A stretch of DNA of 62,157 bases, filler included, from Craspedostauros australis (lineage: Eukaryota): assembly GCA_030167865.1 (NCBI GenBank). It is 6 parts of 6 records of this genome, joined end to end, with 100 filler letters (N's around TTAATTAATTAA, not from the genome) between each part and the next. Parts side by side here need not be neighbours in the genome. Positions count along the whole stretch, not along the records: positions 41,556 to 52,894 come from JALAGF010006681.1; 5 more parts are not named here. One strand, 5' to 3'. This document shows positions 30,606 to 62,157 of the stretch, one piece after another (within the stretch, counting starts at the first letter, position 1; the number at the start of each line of letters is the position of its first letter). The translations under genes were made by a program, and so were the position numbers. The notes below the pieces were generated by a model. The model had not been told where the DNA came from. It searched no databases and saw only the letters and a list, made by a program, of their open reading frames with translations.

Positions 30606-30705
30606 NNNNNNNNNNNNNNNNNNNNNNNNNNNNNNNNNNNNNNNNNNNNTTAATTAATTAANNNNNNNNNNNNNNNNNNNNNNNNNNNNNNNNNNNNNNN
30701 NNNNN
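30606..30705. other. Artificial contig spacer
   Basis: N44-TTAATTAATTAA-N44 (stop codons in all six frames). Confidence 0.97.
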
Positions 30706-33700: not shown

Positions 33701-35990
33701 ACCGCATTGTCCCTGGCGGACTCGGAGATGAGGTACATGCAGGTGGCTCCCATTGACTGCATGTCCGGGCTTCGCTCGATGCTCCGAACCATGGTGCGAA
33801 CGTTGATGTCGTCGCAACCGATGAGGTGGTTAAGGAGCGTGCGGCGTTGTTGTGCGTCGGAGACTTGTTGATCCGGGTTGGTCGCCAGGAAATTCACGTT
33901 CGCGAATATATCCTGGATTTCCTTCACATAGGATCCCAGGTCCTGTCTGCTGGGGTTGAAGTCGTGTACCCTCTTCATCAGAGAGTCGACCTCCATNNNN
34001 NNGATCCAGTCGTTATCGTAGGTATTGAGGAGTTCATTCCAGAATAGGATACCGTCCTCGGTGAGGAGTCCTCTGGTGGCGAGTCCATGTGCTGGGCCGC
34101 CGGCAAAGACGGAGTATAGTCCCGCGAATAGGGTCCTGACGTCGCTCGCGACCTGTTCTGGCGAGGTGGTTGTTGGCACTCCTGTCACCGGGTCGATGTG
34201 GTCCCTGATCGCGTGGATTCCTTGGGAATGGTATCGGTGCCGAAACTGGTCATTGATCAGGTACGCCATGTCGTTTCCAAGGAGATGGGNNNNNNNNNNN
34301 NNNNNNNNNNNNNNNNNNNNNNNNNNNNNNNNNNNNNNNATCCCAGGTCCTGTCTGCTGGGGTTGAAGTCGTGTACCCTCTTCATCAGAGAGTCGACCTC
34401 CATTCCTCTGATCCAGTCGTTATCGTAGGTATTGAGGAGTTCATTCCAGAATAGGATACCGTCCTCGGTGAGGAGTCCTCTGGTGGCGAGTCCATGTGCT
34501 GGGCCGCCGGCNNNNNNNNNNNNNNNNNNNNNNNNNNNNNNNNNNNNNNNNNNNNNNNNNNNNNNNNNNNNNNNNNNNNNNNNNNNNNNNNNNNNNNNNN
34601 NNNNNNNNNNNNTGATCGCGTGGATTCCTTGGGAATGGTATCGGTGCCGAAACTGGTCATTGATCAGGTACGCCATGTCGTTTCCAAGGAGATGGGCGTG
34701 GATTTGGTGTTTCACCACTTGAAAGGATGCCGCATCACTCGTGAATTTGACGGAGTCAGGGATGGGGCGTCGCTTCGGTAGCTTGGTCTGGGCGACTGGT
34801 GGTTCGCTGCGGGTGGATCCTCGATGGGGTGCATACCCGGGTTCGTGTTGTCCGTGTGGGGTGTTCGGGCCCATGTTGCGTGGGTCATGTCTTCCGGAAC
34901 CTCCATTGGGATCGGTTGGGCGGTACCCATACGCGGGCGGTCGTGGTGGATACCCGGGGTGAGGGTGTCCAACGGGGGTGAAGGNTCCTTGTGGCATTGG
35001 AAAACCTCCGGTTCCATGGGGAAAATGGCCCATGGGGATAGGGATNCCAATGGGCGGGAATCCTCCTGGGTGGGTTCCGTGGTACATCGGAAGCGGTGGG
35101 CCATGAGGGAATTGGTTTCCCATGTTAGGGGGATACCCATACGGGTTGCCGCCGTTGTGTCCATGGTTAACTGGAGGCCCATGGTTGTCGCAGTGCGGGC
35201 GGTTTGTCCCATGGTTCGTAGGTAGGTTGCTGGCAGGGTTTCGGTTCACGGGTTCGTGTCCGTTGTTGCCTCGATAGTTACCCACGCCATGTGAGGCTGG
35301 TGTATCCGCGATACCGTGGTAGGGATGCGGGTTCCGATTGTGGGGTGGACGGTTCCCATCGTTCTCTGGGTGGTTCATTCGGGGTGCATTGGTACCTCCT
35401 GGGTCTCTGGCGGTCGTTTCGGGGGCGAAGGTTACTACCTTGGCGCTGGTTGGGTTGCGGTTGTAATCGCCGATCGTCGCGGGGTCTACGTTGGGGAAGA
35501 GTCGGTTCCGTCCTGTGGGGCCGCGGTTGTCGGGTACGTCTACGGTTTCGTCATTACCAGGGTGTTGGTCGTAGTCAGTGCCTGGTTCGGTGTCTTCGTT
35601 GGGTGGGGTGGTACCACGGGTGTCGATGACTACTGGCGATGTGTTTGATGATCCTTGCTTGGCGATGCTGGAGAGTTGGGTATCGTTCCGGAAGTCGGGT
35701 GGAGTACGGTTCGGGGTGTTCCCTTCAAGCATGAGGGAGAGCCCAGATGGGGTTCCTCCTGGGTGGCTGTCGTTGTCGCGTCCGGTTCTACGGGTAGATG
35801 TTTCTGATCCAGATGAGACGCTGGTCGCGGATGCATTGGAGAGTGCCTTCTTGTGTTCCCCGATGGCCTCCAACCACGCTTTGTGGTGGTGGCGTTTGCC
35901 GCATCTTTCGGAACGGCAGAAGTCTGCCATGGCTTTGGCGGTGGTGGCCGTGTCGACGAACATCGCGTCAAGGGTGGATTCGAGGGTGGA
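30706..35990 (-). mobile_element. Diatom CoDi-like Ty1/copia LTR retrotransposon, internal fragment (gag-protease-integrase), gapped
   Basis: Pro/Gly/His-rich gag, aspartic protease YAVCDGGAQCCVIG, integrase IVATDTIFS...FHSDNAKEQ...TEPHNQQQNPAE; protease precedes integrase with no RT in between. Confidence 0.85.
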
Positions 35991-36090
35991 NNNNNNNNNN
36001 NNNNNNNNNNNNNNNNNNNNNNNNNNNNNNNNNNTTAATTAATTAANNNNNNNNNNNNNNNNNNNNNNNNNNNNNNNNNNNNNNNNNNNN
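35991..36090. other. Artificial contig spacer
   Basis: N44-TTAATTAATTAA-N44. Confidence 0.97.
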
Positions 36091-38739: not shown

Positions 38740-41295
38740 CTACACCTCTGCTGTGTTGGCATCCTGCTCTGCTTTGCCGTGATGCTCGGTCTTGCCGACG
38801 AACATGGCCACTTTGAATGTGTTCATGGTGGGTGCTGCCTCGGCCTTGCTGTTGTTGTTGTTGTTGTTGTGAGGCTCAATGATCTCGGCTTTGCTCTTGC
38901 TGGGCGTCTTCTTCTTCTTGCCTTTCTTCTGTTGCTCAGCCTCCTCGTTGGCTTTGGTGGTCACAACGATTTGCTTCTCCAGCAACGGAATGAGGCTGCT
39001 GGTTGGTCGCAGGTTCGTTTTCAGGCATTGCAGACCACTGACAGCCATCACCTTGAGCGCATCATCGTACATACCTTTGATGTCGGGCTTGGCGTACTTG
39101 AAGCCAGCTGATTTGCCTTTCTTGCCTGTTGCGGTTGGCTTCTTGGTGGTCGTGTTGGTTGCCTCATCCTCCTCCTCCAACGCGAAGTCCGTGTGAGACA
39201 CGGTAACGCCGATCTCGTTGCCGTCCTTGTCAGTTTCAGTGAACGATTGTTTCCGCACATTCATGCTGAGGCCCTTGCGCTCCGTCACAAACTCGTCACC
39301 TCCTTTCGCAGCACAAATTGCGTAGGCGATCTGATGGTGGCGAACATACGCGCGAGCGACCTTGTCCAGCCCAAATTGCTCCCAACAGGTTTCGCAAGCA
39401 CCCCACAACGCCTCGGTGGTGAACATGCGGCTCCCGTAGTGCTTACCTTGATGTGCTGACACGTGCTTCGACATCGCTGGGAATATCGCATCGTCTTTCA
39501 CATTCGTGATGGGCGAATTCGATGGTTGAAATCGTAAGTGCCATCCGCGACTGTCAAACTCCTCGTTGATGAACCTGAGTAGTTCCGTGTCTCTGTGTGG
39601 CCCCGCGCCATCCATCTGGTACCGAATCACCACGTTCTTACCCGTTTCGGCCTTGATTTTGCTGGCGAGCGAATCCAGTGCAGGGAGTTCTTTTTTGCGG
39701 AAGAATTTCTTGAGGCTGTACTTCGGCTTGGGCTTAACACGATGACCATCTGTTTCCTTGCTGCCCGTGATTTCCAGTGGTTGGAAGTACAGTTCACCCT
39801 TCTTGCGAGAGATTTTCTTGGGATCAGGAAGGTGCTTGTACTGGGTTGCCGAGACCCAAGTTCGCTTGTACGTGGTCTTCTGCGCTCGAGCCATGCGCCC
39901 AACACGTTCGAAGTTATCCTTATACACCTTTCCTCCGTTCTCAAAGCGGTTGTTTGTTGGGGCGAACGCTGTTGATGCAATCGCCATGGTCTTGTCAATG
40001 TGGCACTTGTGGTGCACAGGATGGTCAACAGGCTTAACTCCCATCTGGGGCACATGTTTGAGGTTGCGCCGAGCAACAATAGAGTAGAACCACTTCTCGT
40101 CCATGTGGACAACAACAACTTGCGTATTCCGGAACTGCTCCGCTGATTCCCAGAACACACAGAAGTCCTTGGCCCAGATGTCGCGCTTCACCTTGATGCC
40201 ACCCTTGATCTTGGGGAGCATTGTTGTACTGCGGTATTCGCTGCCCTCCAACCCCATCACGTATGTTCGGATGGTGTCTTTGCAGACGCATTGGACGTTG
40301 CCCCTTCCTGCTAGTTCGCGTGCAACATCGTCCCACGAGATTGCGCCATTGCATCGTTGCAACACATCCTGGAGCTCAAATTGCAGGAACGGACCGCGCT
40401 CCAACCACGAATCAGACAGGGCTTTTGCGGATGCCAACTCTTGAGGCGAAGCAGAGGCAAATGCACAAGAGATGTCATCAGTTGTCAACCGTTGTCTTGG
40501 ATGTTTAAGCCGCAGTTGTTTCGCAAAGATGGCACGCGGCGTGAAGTATTGCTGTTGCTTCTTGGGGCAGGTGAAGATGGTGCTCCCCGCGTCGCTGCGC
40601 TTCTTCCGTTCCATCTTGTTCTGTTGGAAATTCTTGATATTCCGGGCAACAGTGGTGCGGTGAACATCCCAAGCGTGCGCGATCAATTTCGTGTTGGCTG
40701 GGACCGCACCCAAATTGAAGTAGAGAACGATGTAGCTTTGCAGTTCATCTCTGCCAAGTTGTTTCTTTCTATTGATGGTATTAGTGTTGCTACACCCTCC
40801 ATCCTTTCGCATCCATCCTTTCGTTGTTGCACCTTTCTCCATCTGCTTCGTGAGACGGGCGATGGCTGCTGTCCTGTGCTCTCGTGCCAGCTCGAGAAAA
40901 GCCGCGATGTTGGCTTCTTGCGATTCCTTGGTAGTTGGGGATGGTGTGGGGGGCTTAGCCTTGTTGTTGGCACGCGCGGCAGCGACGGAGCGATGCTGGG
41001 GAGAAAGGAGGGAAGGCTGAGCAAGGCCACCTGCAGTGCGAGTCCGTGCGAAGGTAGCAAGGCTGTGTGGCGCGCACAGATCCTCACGAACAACGTACAT
41101 TCGGCTCTGCCCCATCACTGGGGTCACCATGACCATTGCCACCTCTCCTGGTGCAAGAGGCCCATCGCGTTTGACTGTAGCGCCGTCCGTGGTCTGCTTC
41201 ATTGCAAACTCAACATGGCATACGCCTAGGTCACGGATCCTGTCATTTGAGTCCGTGTGGGGTGCCACCTTTACACAATCACCAGCGCGCAGCAT
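38740..41295 (-). mobile_element. Tc1/mariner (IS630 superfamily) transposase ORF, 851 aa, DD38D triad
   Basis: VHMDEKWFY, YQMDGAGPH and QPSNSPITNVKD resemble plant/oomycete mariner motifs; HTH-like IAHAWDVHRTTVARNIK. Confidence 0.88.
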
Positions 41296-41455
41296 GCTTG
41301 CGAGGTGAAGAGTTCAGTGGTTGCGGGATGATACAACTACGTCCAATGTGGGTGAAGGTTGATAGAACTGCGTTATTGTGTGTGCTTGTTTGAAGTGATG
41401 GTTTACAAAGTTAAGTTTGTTGAGATTATGAGCTCATCAATAAGAGCTCATCATC

Positions 41456-41555
41456 NNNNNNNNNNNNNNNNNNNNNNNNNNNNNNNNNNNNNNNNNNNNT
41501 TAATTAATTAANNNNNNNNNNNNNNNNNNNNNNNNNNNNNNNNNNNNNNNNNNNN
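41456..41555. other. Artificial contig spacer
   Basis: N44-TTAATTAATTAA-N44. Confidence 0.97.
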
Positions 41556-44500
41556 CCGGAAGCCAAGCTTGATCAGGATGTCCACAAGCTTCTTGTTCCA
41601 CTGCCTTGCGCTCTGAACCAACCCGTAGATGGTCTTCTTTAGTAGCAGGCATTCATCCGGTTCATGCTCCATTCCCTTGGGGCATTGCATGTAGATCTCT
41701 TCCTCGAGATCTCCGTGCAGGAAGGCGGTTTCGAAGTCGATGATGATGCTGTCTGTCTTCAACAACATCTTCATGGTCAGCATCACTCGGTACGTTGCAT
41801 CGTGGATAACNNNNNNNNNNNNNNNNNNNNNNNNNNNNNNNNNNNNNNNNNNNNNNNNNNNNNNNNNNNNNNNNNNNNNNNNNNNNNNNNNNNNNNNNNN
41901 NNNNNNNNNNNNNNNNNNNNNNNNNNNNNNNNNNNNNNNNNNNNNNNNNNNNNNNNNNNNNNNNNNNNNNNNNNNNNNNNNNGTCATGTCGTAGAACTCC
42001 TTATTGATGGCCTCCCGCCATTTCCTCCGCTTCGCTGGATCTGCATGATCCCAGCATTCCTCGAAGGTGGTTGGGTCCAACATCATAGCCGTGTATGCGT
42101 GCTCGGATGTCTCGTTCCAATCCCCTCTCTCGACTCGTTGGTTCGCTGCAATGAATTCATTCAGTCTCATTCTCCCTTCTGTGGTGTCGATCATTAGACT
42201 CGCCACGTCTCGATTGAACATGGATATGTTCGAATGGAAGTCTCGTTCGCCCGTGGTTGCATGGATCGTCTCAGCTGTCTCAGCTGGTTCATCCTCTCCA
42301 CTGCTTGATTCTGAGTCGGATTCATATCCTGGTGGATTGTTGGACGGGACCAAACCCCGTAGCATCCTTGACATCTTTGCCACAGGTCTTGCTGGGGGTT
42401 GCTCGATCTCTCTGCCTTCGGCGGCTTGTCTTCGAGTCACCCGTGTGTCGTCCCTTCCGGATTCATCGTCGTCTTCATCGTCCGATGGATCGTCCCCTTG
42501 GGCAGGTAGCAGTTCATCTTGCTTCGATGCATAGCCTGCGGTGTCTTCGTAGTCTGTTCCGGACTCTCTGCTTCGATCAGCTGACACAGCCTTCGCCATC
42601 CTTGCGATACTTGTATCACGCTCCCAAGTCACCTTCGTATTGCGGAGTGCTGCTCCTGCATCGAAGTCGTCGTCTTCCAGATCCACCATTTGTGTTCTGT
42701 TGGCATTCTCAATACCCTTGAATTGCCCATACGACTGGTTCATCCATGTCACGTCTCTGGTGATTAGGATTCTCGTGGTTGCCAGGTTCATCATGCGGTA
42801 TACTCCATTCGCATGAGACTGTCCGTATCCGACGAACATAGCTGGCTTGGATCTGTCATCCAGTTTCGCTTTGATTGCGCGACTGCCGATGTAGACCATT
42901 CCAATCTCCCCGAAGATACGCAATCCTCTCGCGTAGGTTGGGGTCTGTCCATTGAGTAGCAGGCATGCAGGATCCCTTGATTTAGTCTCGACGATGTTCT
43001 CGATCTGCGTTGCGTTCCTTGCTGCCTCTGCCCATAGTTTGCCGCGCAGTTGTCTCGGTAGGTGCGCCTGGTTCAGCATTGACCTGACCTTACCATAGAG
43101 GACCGCGAATTTTCGTTCCACTCTTCCATTCTGTTGAGGAGTCGAAGTGGCAGTGTACTCGAAGGTTGGGGCGAAGCCTGCTCTTAATAGTAGGGCCTCT
43201 GCGCTGTAGTTCTCTCCTGCATTGTCACATCTGACATTCTTTACTGTCACTTGTTGATTGCCTGATAGCCACTTCAACAATGATAGTAGTCTGGGGCCGA
43301 CCTCGCTCTTTTCCTTAACGAAGTAGCTCCAGCAATAGTCGCTGTAGTCGTCGATGACCAGCAACCAGTATTTTCCATGTCCAAAGCTCGTTGCTTGGAC
43401 ACTTGAAGTATCCATGAAGAGTCGTTCTCCGACCTTCTTCGCCCGTAGTTGGAGAGTTTTGGTCAGGCGTTTTTGCTTCGCCTTTCCAATCGCGCAGTCC
43501 TTGTATGGATTGAGGGTCCCAGTCACATTCCATCCATATTGTCTCGCCGTCCTGGAGATCGTATAAGAGTCAACGTGGCCTAGCATTTTATGGAGCTTAT
43601 TCACATCCATGGGCTTCTTTGTATCAAGCCCGACATTCGCCATCTCCTCGCTCTTAGGGGCAGGCACCATGTTTACACCGAGCACGCATCCGCTGTGAGT
43701 TGCCATGATCCAATCGAATCGGATGCGCTGCCCGTTCTTGTCCAGCACGATGATCACGCCCTTGTTACTGATGTTAAACCCGTTATGGAGCGCCTTGCCG
43801 ATGCTGAGTAGGTTGACCCAGAGCTTAGGCACGTATCGCACTCCCTTCAGGATGATGATGGCGCTCTTACCGTCCTTCTGCATCACCCGCATGCGTAGGT
43901 CACCGACCTTAGTGGCGCGGAGGAATTTTCCGCTTCCCACCTTCACAGAGAAATTCGAGAGGCGCACATTAGTCATGCCCTCATCATTATTAGTCAGGTG
44001 ACATGATGCGCCAGTATCTCCCAACCATGTGTTTGCTTCATGTTGGTCTGGTGCAATCAACTCGCGATTGCTCTCACTCGACTCGTGATCCTTGATCACC
44101 ATGGCCATCTCGTGTCCGAATCTTGCTCGGTCGAAGTGTTCCATCAGTTCGAACTTATATTCCGGGCTCCCCTCCATAGGTCTGACCTTTGGGAGTTCTG
44201 GGCACTCCAAGCCGTCTCGCACTTCGGTGTCGTCCCAGCCTCTCATCCATGAGACGCGTTGGGTACACAAGCGGCTCATCCTCAAGATGAGGTGTTTGGG
44301 GAGTAGTGGCAGCCTTTTCTCTTTGAGCAGTTCGTTGACGACCACAATCTTGCATGATAGGTCGTATGCTCCATCGAATCCGATTTGGGTGAGCATGTAG
44401 TAGAGCTCTCGGGTTCCCAAGCAGTAGGCTCTCTCCCGAATGGATTCCCTCCTCACGTCGTAGCACAAAATTGCGCCATTGATTCGAACCTGCACGGCTT

Positions 44501-44777
44501 CCAAGACGTTGGATAGAGAAACCCTCACAGCGTCCTCCACTGAGTCGAATCGGCTCAGGATCGCTCGACGGCGAATCCTTTCCGGTTCGGTGGTTGTCGG
44601 GATCTTTCTGAACGCCCAAGGGGCACGGATCTTGAACACGTTGAATTCGGTGCATTCTGTACACCAGGAGTACATCGCTCCACGCGCGAGGCAGATTGGG
44701 CACCATGCATCCGTTCTGCTGCGTTCGCACACGCGGTCGATTTCGTCACGCAGGAAGTAGTCGATGGCGCTGCTCAT
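41556..44777 (-). mobile_element. Ty1/copia element A, pol (protease-integrase-RT, truncated by contig end)
   Basis: WLGDTGASCHL protease; HKMLGH zinc finger; integrase FMDTS, VRCDNAGEN, PQQNGRVER; RT IDFETAFLHGDLEEEIYM, KKTIYGLVQSARQW. Confidence 0.95.
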
Positions 44778-45734
44778 GTGAGTGGCCGTTGCTTCCTCTC
44801 CTTGCGCAGGTGGCGCATTGTTGACATCGACCCCGGCATTGCGACTTCGGTGTCCCCAATGCTCTCGTCTGATTCGAGCAGGTCATCGTTCATGAGGTCG
44901 CGGATGTCTTCGTTGGTTGGCGATTCGACTCTCTCGGTCGAAGGATACGACTCCATGATTTCGAAGAGATCCTCTTCGAGTCCATCCTCGAGTTCGATCT
45001 CATCGAGATCGTCAATCTCAACGAAACCACCGTCTGTGATGACGAGTGCCATATCGTCCATCCCGTCGTCGGCGTCCATTGCCATGTTGGCGCTCTCATC
45101 TTCCTTCATTGCTGCCTTCAGCTTGAAGCATTGGATGATCTTGTGCCCTGCCTTTCCGCAGTAGTTGCACTTGCCATCGAATCCCCCTTTCTTGGATCCG
45201 CCCTTGGCGTCGGCGTGGTTGCCCTTCTTCTTGGACCCACCGCCTCTCTTGTTGTTGCCTCCCTTGGCTGGCACACGACAGTCCGCCTTCTTGTGCCCGT
45301 AGGCACCACAGTTGCGACAGTTTCCCTTGAACTGTCCAGCTTCGAACAGAGCGAGCTCCTCGTTGCTGCTGTTGCCTGCGCGCTTATAACCATGTTTGAG
45401 ATGGTGGCGGTCGTAGGTAAGGCTCACAGCTTCGCGGATGTCGCCCACAGTCATCTCTCGTTCCTTTCCGTGGAACTTGAGTTCGAGCAGCTTCACGTCC
45501 ATCTCGTACTCGCGGCAAAGTGCGTTGAGCACGAGCATGTTGAACTGCTCCGCATCGATGATCACTTCCTGGTCGATCAGTCGGTTGCGAAGGACCTCCA
45601 TGNNNNNNNNNNNNNNNNNNNNNNNNNNNNNNNNNNNNNNNNNNNNNNNNNNATCCGGATTCTCTCCCTTCTTCAATCGCATCGCATTGAGCTCCGCCAG
45701 CAACTTTGCCTTCATAGGCGCAGTGCGCTGCTCG
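44774..45734 (-). mobile_element. Ty1/copia element A, gag (5'-truncated by insertion of element B)
   Basis: Two CCHC knuckles CRNCGAYGHKKADC and CNYCGKAGHKIIQC; gag-like frame continues upstream of 45715 up to the LTR of element B. Confidence 0.9.
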
Positions 45735-46592
45735 TATCGAGATGTACATGTGAGTATATGTCGAGATGTACGCGTATATGTGCATCGTTCACCCGCTATT
45801 CTCTCATACGCACTTGGACGGTATAACTATACTCGTGTCGATAGTATACTGTGATTCGTCAGAATTACAGCGGAAATGGAACACACGAAAAAGAGCAAGA
45901 TTTCCGGAGGAAATTTGCAATCGACGATTTCTGAGAGAATCAGAAGATCGTCCGTCCATCCATCAATGGTACCAAGAGAATCTCGAGGTACTTCCCAACT
46001 AAACCTCAGATGACGATATCATCTGACAGACTACTGCATCACCAATGGAACATGACATCTGGAGAGCAGAAGGACGCCTACTGACGTTGACAGGATGTCG
46101 ACGTGGTGACACGATGACATCTGTCTCCAACTCAGAGCAGGAGGCGAAGATCCGATGACCCATGAAGATTATGGATACTGAAGGTGAACTTCAAATGGTA
46201 AGTACTCATGGAGTAGGAACCAGTACTGAATGAACGAAGTGTCGAATGCGGAGTACGCATCGAACGTGTAGTATCGCGTAGCATGAAGGACGCGATGCTG
46301 AGACAGAGAGAGAGAGAGAGTACAGAGAGGAGCGAGAGAGCATCTTGCGTACCGACTCATAGTCGGACAACCAAATCTACAAGACAGATTGAAGCGCCGA
46401 GAGCATCGGGCAAGAGAATGGGCGTACACCGAGAGGATCGGAGTAGCCAAGTAATGAAATAGCAAACGAACGACTATCAATCAACACCACCCTCCACGAT
46501 CGTAGGCTACCAATCACGGAACTTGCCAACACGTTTATAAACGATAGATCAGGGCGAGCCTGATTATCGTATCGTGCGAGGAAGACGAACAT
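45735..46592 (+). repeat. 5' LTR of copia element B (boundaries approximate)
   Basis: TGTCGAGATGTA at 45759 (degenerate duplicate at 45735) and the block at ~46080 match the minus-strand 3' LTR starting at 60410; lies directly upstream of the gag ATG. Confidence 0.7.
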
Positions 46593-47845
46593 CATTCAAG
46601 AGCAGCAGGCTGAATGAGCGAGGAAGAGGAACTGAAAGACATCCCTCTGTCCAATCCGACTATCAAGAGAGAAGAAGGTGCGAGTGAGGCTCCACCACGA
46701 CAAGAGAAGGAAGCAGCCGCGGCTACTGTCCTATCAGGCGCAGACGCAAGCGCGATCGACGAGACCGAAGAAGAACGGTCTGCAAGACTACACCGTAAGG
46801 AGAAGAGGATTCTCAAGGCGGTCAAGCAAGAGGAGACTGGTGTGACGAAGAGCATTCGCACAGCCAAACAGGGTGGGAAAAGTGAGACACCATCAGGAGG
46901 AGAATTTGTGAGCAAATCAATCCTCGCGAAACAACCAGCGAAAGTCGAAGAAACGACAACACAGAAACAAACGGAAATCAAGGGCGCGAGCGCACCAACA
47001 ACGAAACAACAAGACAAGATGGCAACGCCAGCCAACACGAACAAGCAACGCATCAAGGCGCCGATGTTCAGTGGTGAACAGGAAGATTACAGCGCATAGG
47101 AGTCCCAAGCAAAGGCATACGCTCGTACACAGAAGACGAGAGACGTGATGTTGGGCAAGACGAAGATCCCAACAGTGAGTGAGATCGCGGCAGCCACCGA
47201 CGACATCAAGGAAGCGATGGAGGAAACCTACGAGCTGGGATGCGACTGCTTCAGCAATCTGATCCTCATGATGGATGCAGAGAAGGGAAAGGGCAAGCAG
47301 GCCATCCAATACATCAATCAATGCATCTCCGACGATTACCCTAAGGGGAATCCACACGCGGCGTGGAACGTTCTCGCGGAGAAGTTCCGTCCATCCGATG
47401 CGGTGACGAAGATCAAACTCAAGCGTCAATTCAACAACGAAAATATGAAGAAAGACTCAGACCCCAACATATACATCACGCGACTTGAGATACTATGCTC
47501 GCGTCTCCATGATGTCAGATACACGATCACCAACGAGGAAATGATCATGCAAATCCTCAGTACGGTGAGCGTGGAATACAGAACACACGTCGTGAGTTTC
47601 AACCACCAACTCACGTTCAATCCGACAGTGATCACCATCAACACGATCAGAAGAGTACTCCATGAAGCACACGCCACTCATCAAGGCGGAAAGGCGTATA
47701 TCGACGACTTCCAGGACAGCAACACGAAGAGCAATGACACCAGCTTCACGAGCACCGGTAACTTCAAGGGTACCTGTCACAACTGTGGTGTGTATGGTCA
47801 CAGATCTGCAGATTGCCCTGAGCGTAAGAAATCGAACAACAAGAA

Positions 47846-47846
<1 letters not shown>

Positions 47847-47876
<30 letters not shown>
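47847..47876 (+). repeat. (AAC)10 microsatellite encoding poly-Asn in gag
   Basis: Read directly from the sequence. Confidence 0.9.
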
Positions 47877-47878
<2 letters not shown>

Positions 47879-48082
47879 GATGAACGGAAAACGCAACAAC
47901 AACCGCAACAAGGGAAGCGGCTTCAACGGCAAGTGCAACTACTGTGGCATCTTCGGACACCGCGAGGCGGAGTGCCAAAAGAAGAAGGCCGACGAACAGG
48001 CCAACACAGCAACAGAAGGACATGACAAGAGCGGACACGAGATGGTACTCTCAGCAAAGGATATGCCGCTCTGCATGTTGGT

Positions 48083-48957
48083 TGTCAGGAATCGGGTGTT
48101 CTGAAACACCATATTGCCGCACCTCCCAAGAGTAAGGAGCCGAACGTGGGGATATTCTACATTACCGCAACTCCCACGTTTGATCATTGTGACACAGAAA
48201 AATGTGAGCTGCACGTAACCCGCGGTGGAGAACACCACGTGCCGAATGCGAACCATGCCTGACGTTCATGACTCCAATGCAGGAATGCGAATCACACGTG
48301 TATGNNNNNNNNNNNNNNNNNNNNNNNNNNNNNNNNNNNNNNNNNNNNNNNNNNNNNNNNNNNNNNNNNNNNNNNNNNNNNNNNNNNNNNNNNNNNNNNN
48401 NNNNNNNNNNNNNNNNNNNNNNNNNNNNNNNNNNNNNNNNNNNNNNNNNNNNNNNNNNNNNNNNNNNNNNNNNNNNNNNNNNNNNNNNNNNNNNNNNNNN
48501 NNNNGTCGACCAGAGTTGATCGGAGATGATCGGAGATGTCTGATGATCAAGGAGCTGAGCGAGCTCCCAACCAAGGCGTTCCCGCAACAGATGAGAGATC
48601 GTGATCTGATCGAATGAGCCGATCTGTGTCACGCCTACGACTCGGTGATGTCTAAGGCATCGGAACTATCAGCGGAGGACAACGTGCTAATGTGCACGAA
48701 TATGGGGTACTCGGTGNNNNNNNNNNNNNNNNNNNNNNNNNNNNNNNNNNNNNNNNNNNNNNNNNNTGCATGCATGTCCATGATGAATTTGCGATGAATG
48801 CAAGATGGATGCCTGCTAGACCAACAGAGGGACCCATGGCAATCTCAGGAGGAGATTGGACTTTGCAATCGAGAGCAATGAAGAGCTCACAGTTCAGAGA
48901 AGTAGATTCTAACAAACGATTAGTTTTCTGCTATCACACCACCCCGGATTTCCAACA
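48083..48957. mobile_element. Inserted TG...CA element, copy 1 (solo-LTR-like), TSD GTTGGT
   Basis: Ends TGTCAGGAATC...GATTTCCAACA; GTTGGT at 48077-48082 and 48958-48963; internal N gaps make the length approximate. Confidence 0.9.
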
Positions 48958-49751
48958 GTTGGTGTCCGACGACTACATCGAAGACTCCTTCTTCGATAAC
49001 TTCATGTGCGTTGGGAGTGACGACGATGTGCAGGATGATGAGATCGTCCCGGAAGGGCTCAGCGAGGAGCCCATCGCCCACGAGGTGGACCCAAGACGCG
49101 AAGTGAGCTACAAATGCTGTTTCAACGTGAACGACCTGATCGGTCCATATGGCGATGGAGCTGAGATGGGCAACGAGGCTATCGACATCGACGTCGAGGA
49201 AGCCATGAGCGAAGATGACGACGACGCCGACAAAGACGGCGCAAATGAAGACGACGACGACGCCTCCGGAGACGAGGCGAATCGCGGCGAAGCGCCGCCT
49301 CCTCCAGCAGTGGGGAATCACAGAACGGGCATCTTCGATGAAGAGGACAGCAACGAAGCTGAGGATCGTCCGAGCGACACCTTCAATCTCCACAAACACG
49401 TCGTCTATCCAATCAGAATCCAATTTCCATCGGAACCAAACCCCAGAAGAGTCGACGACATCTACCAACTCGAGACATTCCCAGAACCAACGATCACTGC
49501 AAGAAGAATGCAGAAGCAACTCATCTACGATGCAGTGTTGACTGCCGGACTGCCAATGTTCCCAGGAACCGTAAATGGGGGACTACTGCACGTATGGGTG
49601 GACATGGTGAGCACCATCCTGTCCGAGAACTTCAAATCGATTGAAGATATCCTCACCAACGCAGCCATCCTCAATCGACTCTTGGAGGCAGCAGGAGAGG
49701 AACCATTCCCAGAATTAGATTTACACTATGTCCTCGGAGGATGCATGCAGG

Positions 49752-50569
49752 TGTCAGGAATCAGGTGTTCTGAAACACCAAATTGCCACACCTCCCAGGA
49801 GTAAGGAGCCGAATGTCATGATATGATACATTACCGCAACTCCCACCCTTGGATCTTTGTGACAGAAAAATGTGAGCTGCACGTGTTTTGCGATGGAGAA
49901 CGACACGTGCCGAATGCGAACCGTACCTTGGCGTTCGTGACCTCAATGCAGGAATGCCAATCACACGTGAATGTCGCAGGGGGCAGGGATGTTGGAATCG
50001 TGACCAACATCACGATACGAGTGACTACGGCCCCCATGTTGCAGCCAATGAGAAAAGAGTACTGGAGGAAGGCCAATGTCACGAAGTGTGAGATGGCCTG
50101 TGAACGAACCTGGTATGAGGAACCTCCAGGAAGCCGGTGAAGTGATCAGCAAAGTAATCAGAGAAACGACAGGAGAAGCATCGGAGATGATCGGAGATGT
50201 GTGATGGTCGAGGAGCTGAATGAGTTCCCAACCAAGGTGTTCCTGTGACGAATGGGAAACCGTGATCTGACCGAATGAACCGATCTGTGTGATGCCTACG
50301 ACTCAGCGATGTCTAACGCATCAAAACTATCAGAGGAGAACAACGTGCTTTTGTGCACGAACATGGGGTGCTCGGTGGTGCATGCATGTCTATGATGAAT
50401 TTGCAATGAATGCAAGATGGATGCCTGCTAGACCAACAGAGGGACCCATGGTGATCCCAGGAGGAGATCGAACTGTGCAATTGAGAGCAATGAAGAGCTC
50501 ACAGTTCAGAGAAGTAGATTCTAACAAACGATTAGCTTTCTACTATCACACCACCCCGGATTTCCAACA
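49752..50569. mobile_element. Inserted TG...CA element, copy 2 (818 bp, solo-LTR-like), TSD TGCAGG
   Basis: Same termini as copy 1; TGCAGG at 49746-49751 and 50570-50575. Confidence 0.92.
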
Positions 50570-52894
50570 TGCAGGTGCTCCTGCGCGAGCGACCACAGGT
50601 CACACCATACGATCCAGTCACCAGAACTCATCGAAACAGCACAGTCCCAACGGACTACGCACAACTACCCAACGACATGGATGATGAAGATCATCACAAC
50701 CCGTACGACAAGTATGGAGTTCACAAAGATGACGACGATGGCAGCTTCAACGACGAGATAGCTGCAGCAGCCGTGGAGCAGCTCCATGAGCTGAGCACCA
50801 AGTACAAGGACAAGGTCAACAAGGACACCTGGCTCGCCGACAGCAGAGCTTTGTGTCATATCGTCAATTTGTACGCCGCTCTGTTCAACGTGCGGCACAT
50901 CAAGTCTTTTGTCCAAGTGGGAGACAGCACGAAGCTGGACTCTCCCAAGATGGGATCCATTTGCTTGAAGGTCAAGCAACGAGACAACACTGGCCACATC
51001 ATCCGGCTCGATGATGTGAAGTACACACCGAAAATGGCGGTGAACCTTTTCTCTACGAACAAGGTTCTGTACAACGGTTACCAGCTTGGTAACAACGGCA
51101 TTCTGATGGACATCATCAACGGATCCGGAACAAAGATCGTGTTCGATCGAGTCTTCCCCACATCCAATGGATTCATCACAGGAGTGCAGATGCATCCCAT
51201 CAAGCCATCGGACGACGACAAGGCTTCCGCAGCTATCATCAAGAATCCATCCAAAGAGATCAGCGCAGTGAACTTGCATCGAATGCTTGGCCACGCGCCA
51301 CTCGAGACCATGAAGCGGACGGCCGCTCAGTACGGATGGAAGATCATTGGAAAGATGCCGGTATGTTGCGACTGCGCGGTCGCGAACGCGAGAGTGAAGA
51401 ACATCCCGAAGGCAACAATCCCAAGAGCAACTCGCCACGGCGAACGTTTCTTCATTGACATTAGTTACACTAAACACATAAGCTTTGGAGATAAACGCTC
51501 CTGGACCCTGATCGTGGACGATTGCACGGACTACTGCTGGAGTTTCTTTCTCAAGAACAAGAGTGACCAACCAGGGTACATCAAAGGATTCGTCCAGACG
51601 ATCAAATCACAGACTGGTGATCAACAAATCATCTTCCGAGGAGACAACAGCGGAGAGAACAAATCCACACAGGATATTCTCATCGATGCAGGACAGAACA
51701 TGAAATTCGAATTCACAGCATCGAACACGGCGCAACAGAGCGGTAGAGTGGAACGCAAGTTCGGCGTACCTCTACACCAAGATCCGCTCCATGCTCAACG
51801 GAGCACAGCTCGACGAAGAGTATAGTCATGGCCTGTGGGCAGCAGCTGCGAGCACTGCTACCGCCATCGCCAACATCACTGTAGCGAAGAATCAGAAGGA
51901 GTCACCACATCGCCAATTCTTCGGCAGTGATCCACCATATGCGGATGCACTCCGCACATTCGGAGAGGTGGGTGTCGTGAAGACCACCTACGGCGGGATC
52001 ACCACCAAACTCAAGAACAGAGGAGAAGAGATGGTGTTCATCGGATATGCACACCAACATGCGTCAGGAGTCTACAACATGTACAGGCCATCAACAAAGT
52101 CACTGGTCTGCTCTTGCGACATCAAATGGCCCAACCAATCATATGGACAGTTCCGTGGCTGGGCACCAGCACCGAACATACCCAGCGAAGCAGGAACAAC
52201 GGACGCAGACGGCTTCACAACCATTGGACGGAAGGGAGCGATGTCAAGGACGGCAACACGTCAAACGACAGAACCAAGGAGAGTATCCTTTGCAGACAGC
52301 AACAGGTACTACATCCTATCAGACAGCGATGATGAGGATAATGAGGACGACGGAGTAGTGACTCAACTAATTCAGAATGACGAGGAAGATCGGAGCGAAC
52401 CCAATCATGAGGATGACGAAATCCTACCCTCCGGCGACGAAGCCGATGATGAGACAGGCGTTACTCCTCCGAACACACCAGCGAGGTCTACACATGACAC
52501 ACCATCAAGATCTCCACCAAGCAAACCAAACAAGCATGACATAGCTAGAAAGGAGAGGATCCGACGTCACGAAGCACGAGGCAGGAAGGGAGAAGCTAAT
52601 CCCAAGTCAACTGCAGGGAAGAGTATTCCCAGAGCTCTGCGCGAGCTCGCAGACTTCAATGAACGAGGTCGAAAGGAGGAAGGCTATGAGAGCAAGTCAT
52701 CATCCAATGAAGCGAGTGATGAACTCAGCGATGAGATAACCGACGAATCCAACAATGAGACTACAGATGATGAAGAGATTGAAGACGAAGGAGAAGAGAT
52801 CGAGATCACTCACCATAGCACAACAGGGCTGTACGGGATGAACGCAATCATCACCGAGGCACCAGCGATCGACATCGGACTGTCGATGCAGGAC

Positions 52895-52994
52895 NNNNNN
52901 NNNNNNNNNNNNNNNNNNNNNNNNNNNNNNNNNNNNNNTTAATTAATTAANNNNNNNNNNNNNNNNNNNNNNNNNNNNNNNNNNNNNNNNNNNN
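52895..52994. other. Artificial contig spacer
   Basis: N44-TTAATTAATTAA-N44. Confidence 0.97.
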
Positions 52995-56317: not shown

Positions 56318-57041
56318 CAGGTCGTAACCTCGCAAGCGGCCATTTTGCTTGATTGGAATAGGCTTAAATCCTGGGCTTGAACAGCGTTTTGAGATGCGCA
56401 GCCGCACATTGCCTTCAGGCCTGATTAAGGGCCTTTGCTATCATAGTGTTGGCTGTTACGGATGCCTGCCGGAGTGGTTTCTGTTTTGGGACGTGACGGC
56501 GCAGAGGCTGCCAGACGCACATGTTCCCGCACAGGACGGCGGTCCCAAACTCAGAGCCACAACAGACGCGACCTCACAAGCGGCCTTTTGCAGGACCGGA
56601 ATAGGCTTAAACCTGGGCTTGAAAAGCGTTTGAGATGCACAGGATAGCCGCTCGTTGCCTTCAGGCCTGATTAAGGGCCTTCTTTGGCCAGCACAGGCCT
56701 TCGCTATCCTATTAGTATTGGCTAAAACGGGTATCTTGATACAATGCCTGGAGGAGTGGCTTCTGTTTAGGGGAGCGATGGCGCAAAGGCTGCCAGACGC
56801 ACATGTTCCTGCACAGGATGGCTGTTTGTCGGGCTCACACACAGAGCCACAACAGGCGTAACCGCGCAAGCGGCCGTTTTGCTTGATTGGAATAGGCTTA
56901 AACCCTGGGCTTGAGAAGCATTGTGAGATGCGCAGGGTAGCCACTCGTTGCCTTCAGGCCTGATTAAGGGCCTTCTTTGGCCAGCACAGGCCTTTGCCAT
57001 CATGATGTTGGTCAATGTGGCCATCTTGATGCTGCCGGAGC
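56318..57041 (+). repeat. Tandem array of ~2.6 units (periods 244 and 290 bp) upstream of the NikA-like gene
   Basis: Anchor C(G/A)CAAGCGGCC at 56331, 56575, 56865; invariant blocks GGAATAGGCTTAAA, CCTGGGCTTGA, TTGCCTTCAGGCCTGATTAAGGGCCT. Confidence 0.9.
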
Positions 57042-57196
57042 TAGAGCCAGAGCCGGAGCCAACGACGACCGAAAAAATGAGGGATCTGCTCACAACTTTT
57101 CCTCCCCCACCAAGGAAAAGCGCCGCACTCCACAAAGCTCGCCAACAACCTCGTGTGTGTCAAACAACAAAACAAAGAACGAAAGAGAGATCCACC

Positions 57197-59116
57197 ATGA
57201 AGTTCTCCACCGCTTCCCTATCCCCGCTCCTGCTCGGAGCCCTGGCAACCGTAAGTCCCACCACCGCCGATGTCAACTCTGCTGCCCTCAAAGCAGCAAT
57301 CGAATGCAACAGCAAGTTTGATCCTCTCATTTTCGTCCTTTTGGAAGATGAGGCGGTCAACGCGGCGATTGAAGACGATGTTCGCAACGATCTGGCCGCG
57401 GTGGGCTTCGATGTCGAATCTCGGTCCTTGTCCAAGGCCGAGATCAACATTGCCCGTCAAGGGGGCGACTTCCACTTTTCCATCAGCGAAACTTGGGGAG
57501 CCCCTTACGATCCTTTCTCATACGTAAGCGGATGGATCGATGGCAACGGCGGTGCAGGTGTCTTTCCCTCCATGGTGAACTTCGAAGCACCATCTACTCG
57601 CACAGAACTCCTCGGTAAGGTCAAGGATGCCCTCCAACAACAAGACCCCGTTGTCCTCAAGCCCAAATGGGAAGAAATCCACAAGTACTACCACGAACAA
57701 GCCATCATGTTGCCGCTCTACGGAAAGCGTATCCCGACGCTCTTCAACCGCCGCTTGACAGGATACGAGCCCGGGCATCAACAGTTTGACTATCCCGTCC
57801 ATCGCCTGCGTCCCGTTGATGGATCGTCCAATTCTGTGACGATTGCCCCCGGCGCCCGGACTGGTCTCTTCAAGACTGTCGGCACCATGAACGCCCACGT
57901 GTATGGCCCAAACGAGTTTTTCTCCAACAACTGGGTCTACGAAGGCTTGGTGGCCTACAGTGCCGGCGCTGCCAACGGTGGAGTCATTCCTGCCCTTGCC
58001 ACCTTCTGGGAGGTTGCACCCAATAACATCGGCGGTGACGATTACACCTTCACTCTTCGCCAAAATGTCAAGTTCCACGATGGTGCAGACTGGAACTGCG
58101 ACGTTGCCAAGCTCAACTTTGATCACATTTTTGCCGGGGCATTGACTTCGGAAAAGCACGGTTGGTATGGTGTGGGCCTCTACACCAAAGAATGGAAGTG
58201 CAACAACGACTACGAATTCGTCGTCCGTACCAACCAAAAGCACGGTCCATACTTGCAAGAACTTACACTCATTCGTCCAGTCCGCATGATCTCTCCCAAT
58301 GCCTTCGTGAATGGGAACAGCACTGATCCGCTCTCAGCCAACTCCTGTCACTTGGATTGGGGCACTGTCAAGGTTGAAGAGGGTAGTGAATTCAAAGAAG
58401 AAGTCAGCTGCGCAGGCATCCAAGACATTGCTGGTACCGGTCCCTTCAGCTACGTCACCAAGAACGTGGGAGACGGCATTGAAACGAGCGTCATTTTTGA
58501 GGCGCACGAATCATACTGGGGCGGCGCATCGGAAATCAAGCGCGTGGAAATTGTCCGCTACGCCACATCGGCAGAAGTCAAGGAGGCCTTGCTGAGTGGC
58601 GAATTGGACATCGTGTGGGGTGCCGGCGTCTTGTCGGATGCTGACATCGTCGAAATCCAAAACGATCCCGCTATTTCTGAACAGATCCAAGTCTCTCATT
58701 CTGATGATGTCCAAAATGTCATCTTGCTCCTCAACTCAGGCAAGGCTCCGTTTGATGACATTAACGTCCGCAAAACAGTCATCCACGCCATCAACAAGGA
58801 AGCCATTGTGCAAAAAGAGCTCAGTGGTCTGCAACAAGTCGTCAACTCCATCTTCCCCCTCAAGGCCCCCTACTGCGACGTCGAATTGACTCCTCGCTGG
58901 GACTACGATCTCGAAAAGGCCGTCCTCTTGAGCTGTGATGGCAAGGCCGGAAACCCCGACAGCGACGACGACGACTCCGACGCCCTCGCCCTGGGTCTTG
59001 GTCTTGGTTTCGGTGCGCTCGCTCTCGTCATGGTGGTCGTCGCCATCACCCTCTACAACAAGAACAAGACTCTTCAGGAAGAACTCGAGATTAAATCTGG
59101 GGCTGTGAAAGCTTAA
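57197..59116 (+). CDS. nikA: NikA-like (solute-binding family 5) nickel/metallophore-binding protein, circularly permuted, with signal peptide and C-terminal TM anchor (639 aa)
   Basis: CCACCATG start, signal peptide MKFSTASLSPLLLGALA; TWGAPYDP, VYEGLV, YTFTLRQNVKFHDG, YLQELTLIRPVRMISP, GTGPF, NSGKAPFDDINVRKTVIHAIN; TM segment ALALGLGLGFGALALVMVVVAITLY; intronless. Confidence 0.9.
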   Translation: MKFSTASLSPLLLGALATVSPTTADVNSAALKAAIECNSKFDPLIFVLLEDEAVNAAIEDDVRNDLAAVGFDVESRSLSKAEINIARQGGDFHFSISETWGAPYDPFSYVSGWIDGNGGAGVFPSMVNFEAPSTRTELLGKVKDALQQQDPVVLKPKWEEIHKYYHEQAIMLPLYGKRIPTLFNRRLTGYEPGHQQFDYPVHRLRPVDGSSNSVTIAPGARTGLFKTVGTMNAHVYGPNEFFSNNWVYEGLVAYSAGAANGGVIPALATFWEVAPNNIGGDDYTFTLRQNVKFHDGADWNCDVAKLNFDHIFAGALTSEKHGWYGVGLYTKEWKCNNDYEFVVRTNQKHGPYLQELTLIRPVRMISPNAFVNGNSTDPLSANSCHLDWGTVKVEEGSEFKEEVSCAGIQDIAGTGPFSYVTKNVGDGIETSVIFEAHESYWGGASEIKRVEIVRYATSAEVKEALLSGELDIVWGAGVLSDADIVEIQNDPAISEQIQVSHSDDVQNVILLLNSGKAPFDDINVRKTVIHAINKEAIVQKELSGLQQVVNSIFPLKAPYCDVELTPRWDYDLEKAVLLSCDGKAGNPDSDDDDSDALALGLGLGFGALALVMVVVAITLYNKNKTLQEELEIKSGAVKA

Positions 59117-59317: not shown

Positions 59318-59417
59318 NNNNNNNNNNNNNNNNNNNNNNNNNNNNNNNNNNNNNNNNNNNNTTAATTAATTAANNNNNNNNNNNNNNNNNNNNNNNNNNN
59401 NNNNNNNNNNNNNNNNN
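59318..59417. other. Artificial contig spacer
   Basis: N44-TTAATTAATTAA-N44. Confidence 0.97.
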
Positions 59418-60439: not shown

Positions 60440-62157
60440 TGTTCTCGATGTGTCAAGGTATGACTTCTCGTGTTCACGTTGTAAGTTGGCCTTGATGTTC
60501 TTGGTGAAGCCGTCGCTTGTGTTCTGCTCTGACTTGACGAAGATGATTTTGATGGTCTTGTTGGTTACCATGTTCCTCATGTAGTGATGGCGCACGTTGA
60601 TGTGCCGCGATCATTGGGATGTTGATGGGTTCTTGGCGATGAAGATTGCTCCGATGTTGTCCACNNNNNNNNNNNNNNNNNNNNNNNNNNNNNNNNNNNN
60701 NNNNNNNNNNNNNNTCTTCACTGGGACGCCCACACTTTCGAGTAGCTGCATGACAAAGAAGATCTCTTTTGCTGCTTTGGAAAGAGCAACGTATTCTGTT
60801 TCGGATGAGCTGAGTGTGACGGCCTTCTGTGCTTTGGATCGCCAACAGGTTGGTACCTTGCACAGGTATAGGATGAACCCTCCTACGCTGATTCTCGTGT
60901 TCTTGTCCCCTGCGTATTCGCTATCACAGAAGAGCTCCATGTCCCAGCTGTCGTCGTCTGGACGTGCTAGATGGATCTTCAATCCATAGTCCTTTGTATC
61001 GATCACATACTTGATGATCTGATACATCTCCTTCATTGCGGCCTTGGTGGGCCCGATCAATACCTTGGAGAGTTCCCTCACAGGGTTCACGATATCTGGT
61101 CGCGAGTGCTTGATGAGGAAGAGTAGCATACCGACACCTCAGCGGTATTCGGCATGTTCTTCCAGTCCGACCTTCTGCAGTCCGTTATTGTCGGATGGTC
61201 GTACGATGATTTGGCCCAGGGTTCCCGGTGTCCCATAGCGTTGCATCTTCTCAACCTTGGTTCCGAACTCTTCGATGAGGTGTCGGATGAGATGGGGTTG
61301 ACGCAATGTCGCTCTAGTCTTGTCATGGTTCAGTTCGATGTTGCAGCTGAGATAGTCTCCGAGTCCGCGCTCGATTGTCACCTTGAATTTGCTGCCTTGG
61401 ATGTCCTTCAGGAATGTCTCCAGTGCCTTGGAGTCTCTGCAGCAGAAGCAATCGTCCACGTAGATGGCCACAATCATACTTCCTTTGTTCGTCTTCCTGT
61501 AGAACAGGCACGGGTCTGCTGTGCTCTGTTCGAAGTTGATATTCTTGAGGGTCGACACCAACATCTTGAACCATTGCCTGGCGCTCTGCACAAGTCCGTA
61601 GATTGGCTTGTGTAGAGTCAGGGTTTCGTCTGGTTGATGATCCATTCCGTTGGGGCAGTTCATGTAGATCTCCTCGTCGAGGTCTCCATGTAGGAATGCC
61701 GTTACGACATCGACGAGTGCGCAGTCCATCTTCTTGATNAGCATGATCACCATCATGACCCNATAGGTCACGTCATGGATGACAGGTGAGTAATGCTCTT
61801 GGAAGTCTACTCCTGCGACTTGTGAATAGCCACATGCAACGAGCCGTGCTCGATGTGTGCCGTTATGCTTTAGCTTGAAGACCCATTTGCACTTGCAGCA
61901 TCTGCGGCTGCGTGGGATGGCGTCTTGTTTGATCTTGCTATACACCTTGCGTGTATCCATTGAGTCGAACTCCTTTTTGATGGCTGCTCGATATCCCCTT
62001 CGATGGATGGGATCTGGGTGATTGAAGGCTCCATCGAATGTCGTTGGCTTGATGTGCTTCTCGGATTCTTCGCTCTGGTCCTGCATCGAAAATCTGATAT
62101 CAATCGCTGGTGTCTCGGTAATGATTGCATTCATTCTGTATAGTCCTGTTGTGCTAT
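60440..62157 (-). mobile_element. Ty1/copia element C, RT-RNase H, degenerate (in-frame TGA at 61139-61141, frameshift near 60612)
   Basis: CKWVFKLK, RARLVACGYSQ, VDVVTAFLHGDL, IYGLVQSARQW, IYVDD, SRPDI, FCDSEYAGD, LSSSETEYVAL, VDNIGAI. Confidence 0.95.

Follow-up and report, generated by a model that had tools for sequence, protein, structure and literature searches.

Two independent LTR-type insertions, probably nested solo LTRs, in a copia retrotransposon of Craspedostauros australis

The window (the whole stretch of Craspedostauros australis DNA that was analysed, 62,157 nt) contains a retrotransposon that is interrupted twice by copies of a shorter repeat (Table 1). The host is a Ty1/copia LTR retrotransposon. 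Its domain order, PF14223, PF00098, PF22936 and PF25597 (SH3_retrovirus), is that of copia and is collinear with a full-length copia element, P0004, residues 11-310 of which align to 47052-48017 by tblastn. The two families in host fragment 1 are well supported (PF14223, E 5.6e-12; PF00098, E 1.5e-07), while host fragment 2 matches no Pfam family and has no relative in two large protein searches. The reverse transcriptase portion lies past the contig end, with an N44-TTAATTAATTAA-N44 linker beginning at 52895.

Table 1. Coordinates of the copia host, the two nested repeats and their target-site duplications (TSDs) in the window.
Feature	Position	Strand	Description
Host copia gag start	46614-47099	+	ATG 46614; in-frame stop 47097-47099; frame resumes at 47100
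Host fragment 1	47100-48082	+	Retrotran_gag_2, two zf-CCHC knuckles, beginning of gag-protease linker
Copy 1 left TSD	48077-48082	.	GTTGGT, direct reading
Repeat copy 1	48083-48957	+	Non-coding, TG..CA, LTR-type; nominal length 875
Copy 1 right TSD	48958-48963	.	GTTGGT, direct reading
Host fragment 2	48964-49751	+	Acidic gag-protease linker
Copy 2 left TSD	49746-49751	.	TGCAGG, direct reading
Repeat copy 2	49752-50569	+	818 bp, gap-free, non-coding, TG..CA
Copy 2 right TSD	50570-50575	.	TGCAGG, direct reading
Host fragment 3	50576-51764	+	Linker end, protease (Pol_BBD), integrase N-terminal part; until frameshift
Host fragment 4	51764-52894	+	Next frame: integrase SH3-like domain and spacer; cut by contig end

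The long linker is shared with other elements. A neighbouring minus-strand copia, 37% identical to the host (135/365), has the same plan of gag, long linker and protease, and long linkers also occur in the full-length relatives P0004 and P0007. Nine relatives of this neighbour were found at an E cut-off of 1e-10, and the best full-length protein among them is 38% identical. The initial annotation had described the host as otherwise decayed, which overstates the damage: it carries a single in-frame stop (47097-47099) and a single frameshift (near 51764/51765).

Both repeats begin with TGTCAGGAATC and end with CACCCCGGATTTCCAACA by direct reading (termini TGTCAGG...CCAACA). These are TG...CA ends as expected of a solo LTR, in agreement with the earlier description of the element as LTR-like. 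Each copy is bounded by a perfect 6-bp TSD, which is the upper end of the 4-6 bp typical for LTR elements. At copy 2 the element's first T is also the next base of the target, which lengthens the flank match to 7 bp (TGCAGGT). The outer flanks of the pair differ (GTTGGT against TGCAGG), and the sequence that separates the repeats is in frame with the host on both sides. The locus therefore holds two separate insertions rather than one LTR pair, as the initial annotation had proposed. When each repeat is deleted together with one TSD, 47100-48082, 48964-49751 and 50576-51822 join into 1006 codons free of stops, with the joints KDMPLCMLV/SDDYIED and YVLGGCMQV/LLRERPQ. The rejoining of the three fragments was thus correctly reported, but it follows automatically from removing a repeat with one TSD and is no extra evidence. 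Two nested insertions into a copia frame are in themselves an ordinary event.

The repeat is non-coding. None of its four ORFs (0/4) matches a Pfam family, a search against Rfam returned no match at E up to 1, and scans for tRNAs and for bacterial promoters and terminators gave nothing informative. At 818 bp, copy 2 lies within the range of a few hundred bp to ~1 kb found for non-coding solo LTRs. The tandem-repeat scan picked up a 10-nt unit, present 2-2.6 times, as the sole tandem repeat inside it. Copies 1 and 2 are identical at 536/616 comparable columns (87%), with 10 gap columns. Copy 1 is interrupted by N runs at 48305-48504 (200) and 48717-48766 (50), so its length of 875 is nominal and may include hidden sequence. 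The 3' 191 nt are better conserved between the copies (180/191) than the remainder (356/425; Fisher p 2.4e-4), as is expected of LTRs, in which R-U5 should be better conserved than U3. To compare the ends in inverted orientation, the first 30 nt of each copy were locally aligned with the reverse complement of its last 30 nt; the score obtained was reached by 33/2000 shuffles for copy 1 and by 275/2000 for copy 2. Inverted similarity beyond TGT..ACA is weak, a pattern that would suit an LTR more than it would a TIR transposon.

The sites of insertion resemble each other. Both copies are in sense orientation within the gag-protease linker, and their target contexts, which lie in one codon phase, agree at 11/15 positions (random site pairs give P 0.0075 and 0.0068). 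The two targets share TGCATG-NN-GGTG (P about 0.007), and apart from these two sites the 4572-nt host contains no TGCATG. The TSD register is shifted by 1 nt between the copies relative to this shared motif. Since chance alone does not explain the sense orientation and the use of the only TGCATG sites, a target preference must be assumed. The shared 12-nt context is a feature worth following, as a sequence-specific target of an LTR-type integrase would be useful knowledge.

Further copies and relatives were sought in several collections. A blastn search of the window with copy 2 gave 3 HSPs, all of them to copy 2 itself or to copy 1, and the terminal motifs, allowing up to 3 mismatches, occur in the window at the two copies and at one 3-mismatch site (34944-34961). 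The 3'-end 21-mer of the repeat has 0 matches in metagenome, prokaryote-genome and viral contigs, and the 5'-end 29-mer has 0 in metagenome contigs. No relative of the host linker with empty sites was found among longer proteins (4183 candidates scored), and no linker relative at E up to 0.001 was found among 1.84 billion representatives.

The borders of both copies can be read as splice sites, a possibility raised in the initial annotation, and its sequence readings hold. Excising 49751-50574 as a GT..AG unit gives the pre-insertion sequence of copy 2 exactly, and excising 48081-48958 at copy 1 keeps the frame, with 3 bases (a Leu codon) more than before the insertion. Frame-keeping GT..AG borders, a feature of introners, are thus present at both. 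Both copies contain a CTAAC, 46 nt (48909-48913) and 50 nt (50521-50525) upstream of the junction AG. The caveat that an earlier AG follows also stands: ATTAG comes after CTAAC in both copies, with its AG ~10 nt downstream, and after it come 33 or 37 nt that contain no AG and are 68-70% pyrimidine. The donors, GTTGTC and GTGTCA, are weak, as cautioned, and lack the +4/+5 AG of GTGAGT at 25304, the one clear native-looking donor in the window.

The splice positions are not consistent across the two copies. In copy 1 the donor begins 2 nt upstream of the element and the acceptor finishes 1 nt downstream of it (donor -2/acceptor +1), whereas the distances in copy 2 are 1 and 5 nt (donor -1/acceptor +5); copy 1 has a second frame-keeping solution, donor +1 with acceptor +1. 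The only donor position common to both (GTCAGG, element base 2) frameshifts copy 2. Under a strict test, requiring an in-frame, stop-free GT..AG built from TSD and terminal bases only, both sites pass, as do 163/2948 simulated insertion sites (5.5%; ~0.3% jointly), a criterion picked after the data were seen. Exact restoration, as in copy 2, occurs at 89/2948 simulated sites, and with 3 nt of slack 1112/2948 random sites pass. Most of the splice dinucleotides come from the target context that the two copies have in common.

In simulations, 2% neutral change leaves 10% of 1006-codon frames open, and at 6.5% per site the probability of no stop is 0.0005. Given the intact host frame, the copies cannot have reached their 13% divergence by neutral change at this locus.

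Taken together, these observations show two insertions with their TSDs, a non-coding repeat and a copia host; that an LTR-type element inserted itself twice is the probable account, and a solo-LTR origin appears most likely for each repeat. The copia element (gag from 46614, cut at the contig end, 52894) was struck twice independently. On each occasion a full-length element of another LTR family would have been inserted by its integrase, with a 6-bp TSD per event, and its two LTRs would then have recombined to leave a non-coding ~0.82-kb solo LTR. The source elements of the two copies would already have been ~13% diverged, and the integrase apparently prefers targets like TGCATG-NN-GGTG. With such a target and TG..CA ends, GT and AG would come to lie at the borders incidentally, and GT..AG removability would be without function. 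The insertions would break the gag-pol frame, with translation predicted to stop 7 codons into copy 1. The differing splice registers are what chance would give, which counts in favour of solo LTRs.

Some observations sit less easily with a solo-LTR origin. A full-length parent and a third copy were not found in the window or the contig collections, and the term LTR is based on the end structure. Two full-length insertions are needed, each reduced to a solo LTR, in a short-lived host copy. Both insertions pass the strict GT..AG test, and both are in sense orientation at the host's only two TGCATG sites. If the reading is right, the pair is a clean textbook case of nested transposon insertion, of use mainly in the repeat annotation of the draft genome.

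It is unlikely, though worth weighing, that the repeat is instead a self-standing 0.8-kb element, non-autonomous and strongly selective for TGCATG-NN-GGTG, which an integrase of retroviral type or a transposase would mobilise in trans. The 11/15 match of the contexts in one codon phase and the confinement of TGCATG to the insertion sites would be expected of such an element, and two events would suffice instead of four in a young host. The TGT..ACA ends of copy 1 also carry some further inverted similarity, but that of copy 2 is not significant. The 1-nt offset of the TSD register against the shared motif counts against such an element, and two copies are too few for a target logo. We know of no DNA-transposon superfamily that pairs TG..CA ends with 6-bp TSDs at ~0.8 kb.

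An introner-like element is a rather less probable candidate. In this case a 0.8-kb LTR-type element inserted at protosplice-like sites would be spliced from host transcripts, with TSD bases and TG..CA ends forming GT..AG and the conserved 3' part providing the branch point and pyrimidine-leaning tract; the host copia lineage may have carried both copies as introns, with the frame under selection. The passing of the strict test at both sites and the exact restoration at copy 2 agree with this, but the criterion is post hoc, over a third of random sites pass with slack, and the shared target motif itself provides the G...GGT bases. The spacing of CTAAC from the junction and the AG-free pyrimidine stretch resemble an intron end, but the early AG intervenes and the donors are poor. 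An intron of ~820 nt would also be long for diatom-like algae. The sense orientation of both copies, the better conserved 3' 191 nt and an open frame around copies too diverged to have aged neutrally in place are consistent with splicing; against it, the copies need different splice positions, and both lie in a transposon with a stop and a frameshift rather than in a cellular gene. Functional introns formed by solo LTRs have been published (Gozashti et al. 2025, PMC12130899). A bolder version, in which the repeat would be an intron generator with a strict TGCATG-NN-GGTG target and the copia lineage would carry two as working gag-pol introns, is a long shot, although it would explain 1006 open codons around copies that differ by 13%.

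An assembly artefact, in which scaffolding over a dispersed repeat created an apparent second insertion, is scarcely credible and was rejected. The contig is a gapped draft, copy 1 has its N runs, and the window consists of contigs joined by N linkers, but copy 2 is gap-free, both copy 1 junctions lie in real sequence with the same TSD, and the host frame runs across both sites, which a misjoin would not yield. A single TRIM/LARD-like element, with the repeats as its LTRs and 48958-49751 as its interior, is the least credible reading and was likewise rejected: two direct repeats do lie ~0.8 kb apart, and the GTTGGTG that follows copy 1 and the purine-leaning stretch that precedes copy 2 loosely resemble a PBS and a PPT, but the outer flanks differ, each repeat has its own perfect TSD, the would-be interior is free of stops and in frame with the host at either end, and 87% identity is too low for one element's LTR pair in so intact a host. 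A tyrosine-recombinase 'core' model was discarded as well; the left junction has a true extra 6-nt duplicate.

The solo-LTR reading finds its closest parallel in the diatom copia elements CoDi1-7. According to Maumus et al. 2009 (PMC2806351), diatom copia LTRs span 153-844 bp, and TG/CA termini are present in 23/26 families. Solo LTRs and nested LTR-retrotransposon insertions of this kind resemble the present repeat in their TG..CA ends, short TSD and non-coding body; its 818 bp falls within the published range, and it too is inserted inside another retrotransposon. The present repeats differ from CoDi1-7 in that searches of the window and contig collections showed no full-length parent, in the 6-bp TSD and in their near-identical 12-nt targets.

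With respect to introners, the comparison is looser. Those of Micromonas and Aureococcus, reportedly described by Huff et al. 2016, co-opt the TSD as a splice site; they are DNA elements of small size, present in thousands of copies and spliced at fixed positions. The idea of TSD bases and element ends creating splice dinucleotides is the same here, but the splice position is unfixed between the two copies. The initial annotation's view of introners as mostly short DNA elements no longer holds: intron-creating elements derived from LTRs have been published, and the cases presented by Gozashti et al. 2025 include solo LTRs of a Copia family in P. virgatum (PMC12130899). The criterion for an introner given there is that many similar copies serve as introns in different genes and resemble one another up to the exon-intron borders but not in the exons (PMC12130899). 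The present repeats are like these in being a sense LTR-type unit in a coding frame, with GT..AG at the border and frame-keeping removal. However, many of the copies treated there coincide with introns that are annotated in cellular genes, backed by transcripts and spliced at consistent sites (PMC12130899), whereas here two copies, known from sequence, lie in a broken transposon with inconsistent registers. If spliced, the repeat would be a stramenopile-like addition to the published LTR-derived introners.

Spliced RNAs of LTR retrotransposons provide the precedent that the boldest intron reading needs. One is the Ogre intron, which belongs to an LTR retrotransposon with spliced RNA. Another is BARE, described in PMC3735527 as a copia-type element that uses splicing of its own RNA. 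The introns of BARE and Ogre are part of the element's own design, whereas the repeats here are nested insertions of another repeat; if they were spliced, a retrotransposon tolerating another element's insertions as introns would be the more unusual point.

The two direct repeats of about 0.8 kb that interrupt the copia frame (copy 1 and copy 2; see table) are identical at 536 of 616 positions (87%, comparable columns only); the length of copy 1 is nominal, as N runs of 200 and 50 lie within it. Each repeat has its own target-site duplication (TSD), and the outermost flanks of the pair differ (GTTGGT versus TGCAGG). When each repeat and one TSD are left out, the three host pieces form 1006 stop-free codons, with joints at ...PLCMLV/SDDYIED... 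and ...GGCMQV/LLRERP.... This bears out the initial annotation, which had seen two separate insertions rather than an LTR pair and had rejoined three ORF fragments into one frame. No third copy was found in the 62-kb window by blastn and motif searches. The likely explanation is that an LTR-type element with a target preference landed in the host on two independent occasions, giving nested copies that are probably solo LTRs.

Coordinates of features in the window
Feature	Position	Strand	Details
Copy 1, direct repeat	48083-48957		starts TGTCAGGAATC, ends CACCCCGGATTTCCAACA
Copy 2, direct repeat	49752-50569		starts TGTCAGGAATC, ends CACCCCGGATTTCCAACA
TSD of copy 1, GTTGGT	48077-82 and 48958-63		perfect, 6 bp, direct
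TSD of copy 2, TGCAGG	49746-51 and 50570-75		perfect, 6 bp, direct
Host gag frame start	46614		ATG
Host Retrotran_gag_2, two zf-CCHC knuckles	47100-48080
Host Pol_BBD protease	50575-51822
Host integrase SH3-like domain	51704-52894
Second copia-type element (neighbour)	41508-45826	minus	head to head with host
Third copia-type element, RT-RNase H part	60455-62155	minus	RVT_2 E 8e-42; 50% identical to P0004
Three successive same-frame ORFs	23121-27179	+	guanylate/adenylate cyclase E 6.5e-45, then cyclic-nucleotide phosphodiesterase E 2.9e-26
729-codon ORF	56927-59116	+	bacterial solute-binding protein family 5, PF00496, E 6.1e-44; contig of its own
Long open frames, 1253, 593 and 857 codons	30658-36038 and 38740-41313	minus	without Pfam family
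Gap-adjacent duplicate pairs	32389/32842, 33933/34340, 34206/34613
N44-TTAATTAATTAA-N44 blocks, six-frame stop linkers, n=5	30606-30705, 35991-36090, 41456-41555, 52895-52994, 59318-59417

None of the four ORFs in the repeat matches a Pfam family and the repeat has no Rfam match; by these signs it is non-coding. Its ends are TG..CA, its TSD is 6 bp long, and copy 2, at 818 bp, lies inside the 153-844 bp LTR range of diatom copia families, 23 of 26 of which have TG/CA ends (PMC2806351). Inverted similarity past TGT..ACA is weak, being equalled by 33 of 2000 shuffles for copy 1 and 275 of 2000 for copy 2. Conservation between the copies is higher in the 3' 191 nt (180/191) than in the remainder (356/425; p 2.4e-4), and the terminal motifs had no matches in metagenome, prokaryote-genome and viral collections. 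The best fit is probably a solo LTR; that the repeat is a self-standing non-autonomous element is unlikely.

The surrounding frame is, by its domains, a copia-type retrotransposon, collinear with the full-length copia polyprotein P0004. It carries one in-frame stop in gag (47097-47099) and a frameshift near 51764, and the contig end cuts it before RT. Its protease motif is altered at 50840-50860 (WLADSRALCH versus WLGDTGASCH in relatives). Both insertions sit within a long gag-protease linker that the host shares with the neighbour, P0004 and a further full-length relative, P0007. The 262-residue middle host piece has no Pfam family and no relatives in either large protein search; therefore, no empty-site relative was obtained. 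The neighbour has a 1124-codon open frame with Pol_BBD, SH3_retrovirus and the start of RVT_2, where the contig end cuts it, and is 37% identical to the host in PR-IN (135/365). Only ~790 bp separate their gag starts, which means that the 5' LTR of one or both elements must be short or truncated. The DNA of the third element is 71% identical to the neighbour's RT start (41583-41810).

The pre-insertion targets, TGCATG-TT-GGTG and TGCATG-CA-GGTG, have the same codon phase (C-M-x-V) and agree at 11/15 positions, a match with a probability of 0.0075 (19,746 pairs) or 0.0068 (39,281 pairs) among random host site pairs. The 4572-nt host contains just two TGCATG sites, and an insertion lies at each. 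This pattern points to target selectivity; the TSD register shifts by 1 nt between copies relative to the motif. The targets at 48072-48083 and 49742-49753 (CATGTTGG, CATGCAGG) resemble the element ends joined, ..CAACA/TGTCAGG.. (CATGTCAGG), a likeness that may be chance or integrase preference.

The GT..AG dinucleotides proposed earlier as intron borders are present: excising 49751-50574 (copy 2) returns the target sequence exactly, and excising 48081-48958 (copy 1) leaves one additional Leu codon. The branch-point-like CTAAC was likewise recovered 46 and 50 nt upstream of the junction AG (copy 1, copy 2), with an early TTAG ~10 nt 3' of it and then 33 or 37 nt free of AG and 68-70% pyrimidine. 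In-frame rejoining is uninformative on splicing, because it is automatic on removing an insertion and one TSD. Copy 2 with a 6-bp TSD was inserted in silico into each of the 2948 interior sites of the reconstructed host frame in turn. Exact GT..AG restoration followed at 89 sites (3.0%), and an in-frame GT..AG without a stop, built from TSD and terminal bases alone (strict test), at 163 (5.5%), rising to 1112 (37.7%) with 3 nt slack; pass counts were independent of insert orientation. Both actual sites pass the strict test (joint chance ~0.3%), which is real evidence for the intron reading, though the criterion was picked post hoc.

Against this, a spliced introner-like element would require different registers relative to the element end (donor -2/acceptor +1 in copy 1, donor -1/acceptor +5 in copy 2), and use of the donor common to both copies, GTCAGG at base 2 of the element, puts copy 2 out of frame. 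Neither GTTGTC nor GTGTCA, the donors in these registers, has the AG seen in a native-looking donor, GTGAGT (25304), and the host copy already has its stop and frameshift. At both sites the donor GT comes from the shared target motif, which at site 1 also gives the G completing the acceptor; at site 2 the acceptor AG comes from variable bases. Splicing of the repeat appears quite improbable. The copies diverge by 13%, yet 1006 host codons are open; simulated frames stayed open in 1/2000 cases at 6.5% neutral change per site and in 10% at 2%. Either the source elements had already diverged, the ordinary alternative, or selection preserved the frame during drift of the insertions, a scenario that would require splicing.

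The copies lie in a gapped draft contig bounded by the linkers at 41456-41555 and 52895-52994, but the TSD pattern and the host frame rejoining across both sites make a single LTR-interior-LTR element or an assembly misjoin, even taken together, very improbable. The stop-linker blocks make the window a chain of separate contigs, so adjacency across them is meaningless; it holds 46 N runs (1796 N in all), many of 50-200 bases. N runs and gap-adjacent 84-264-nt duplicates, 97-100% identical, lie scattered among the long minus-strand frames; the duplicates look like gap-edge assembly duplications. The PF00496 ORF may have come from bacteria contaminating the assembly, or may be a transferred gene. 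The ORFs at 23121-27179 have the look of a cyclase-phosphodiesterase fusion gene containing short introns, with GTGAGT at 25304 and, at 24316, a pyrimidine tract and CAACAG; such fusions have been described in diatoms. Together with an Atlas lead to Bacillariophyta clusters (score 0.90), this gene hints weakly at a diatom-like alga.

Solo LTRs and nested insertions, the preferred reading here, are routine. Were the repeats spliced, they would add to a kind already in print: in PMC12130899, LTR-retrotransposon-derived introners make up ~12% of confidently classified families and include solo LTRs forming functional introns in P. virgatum.
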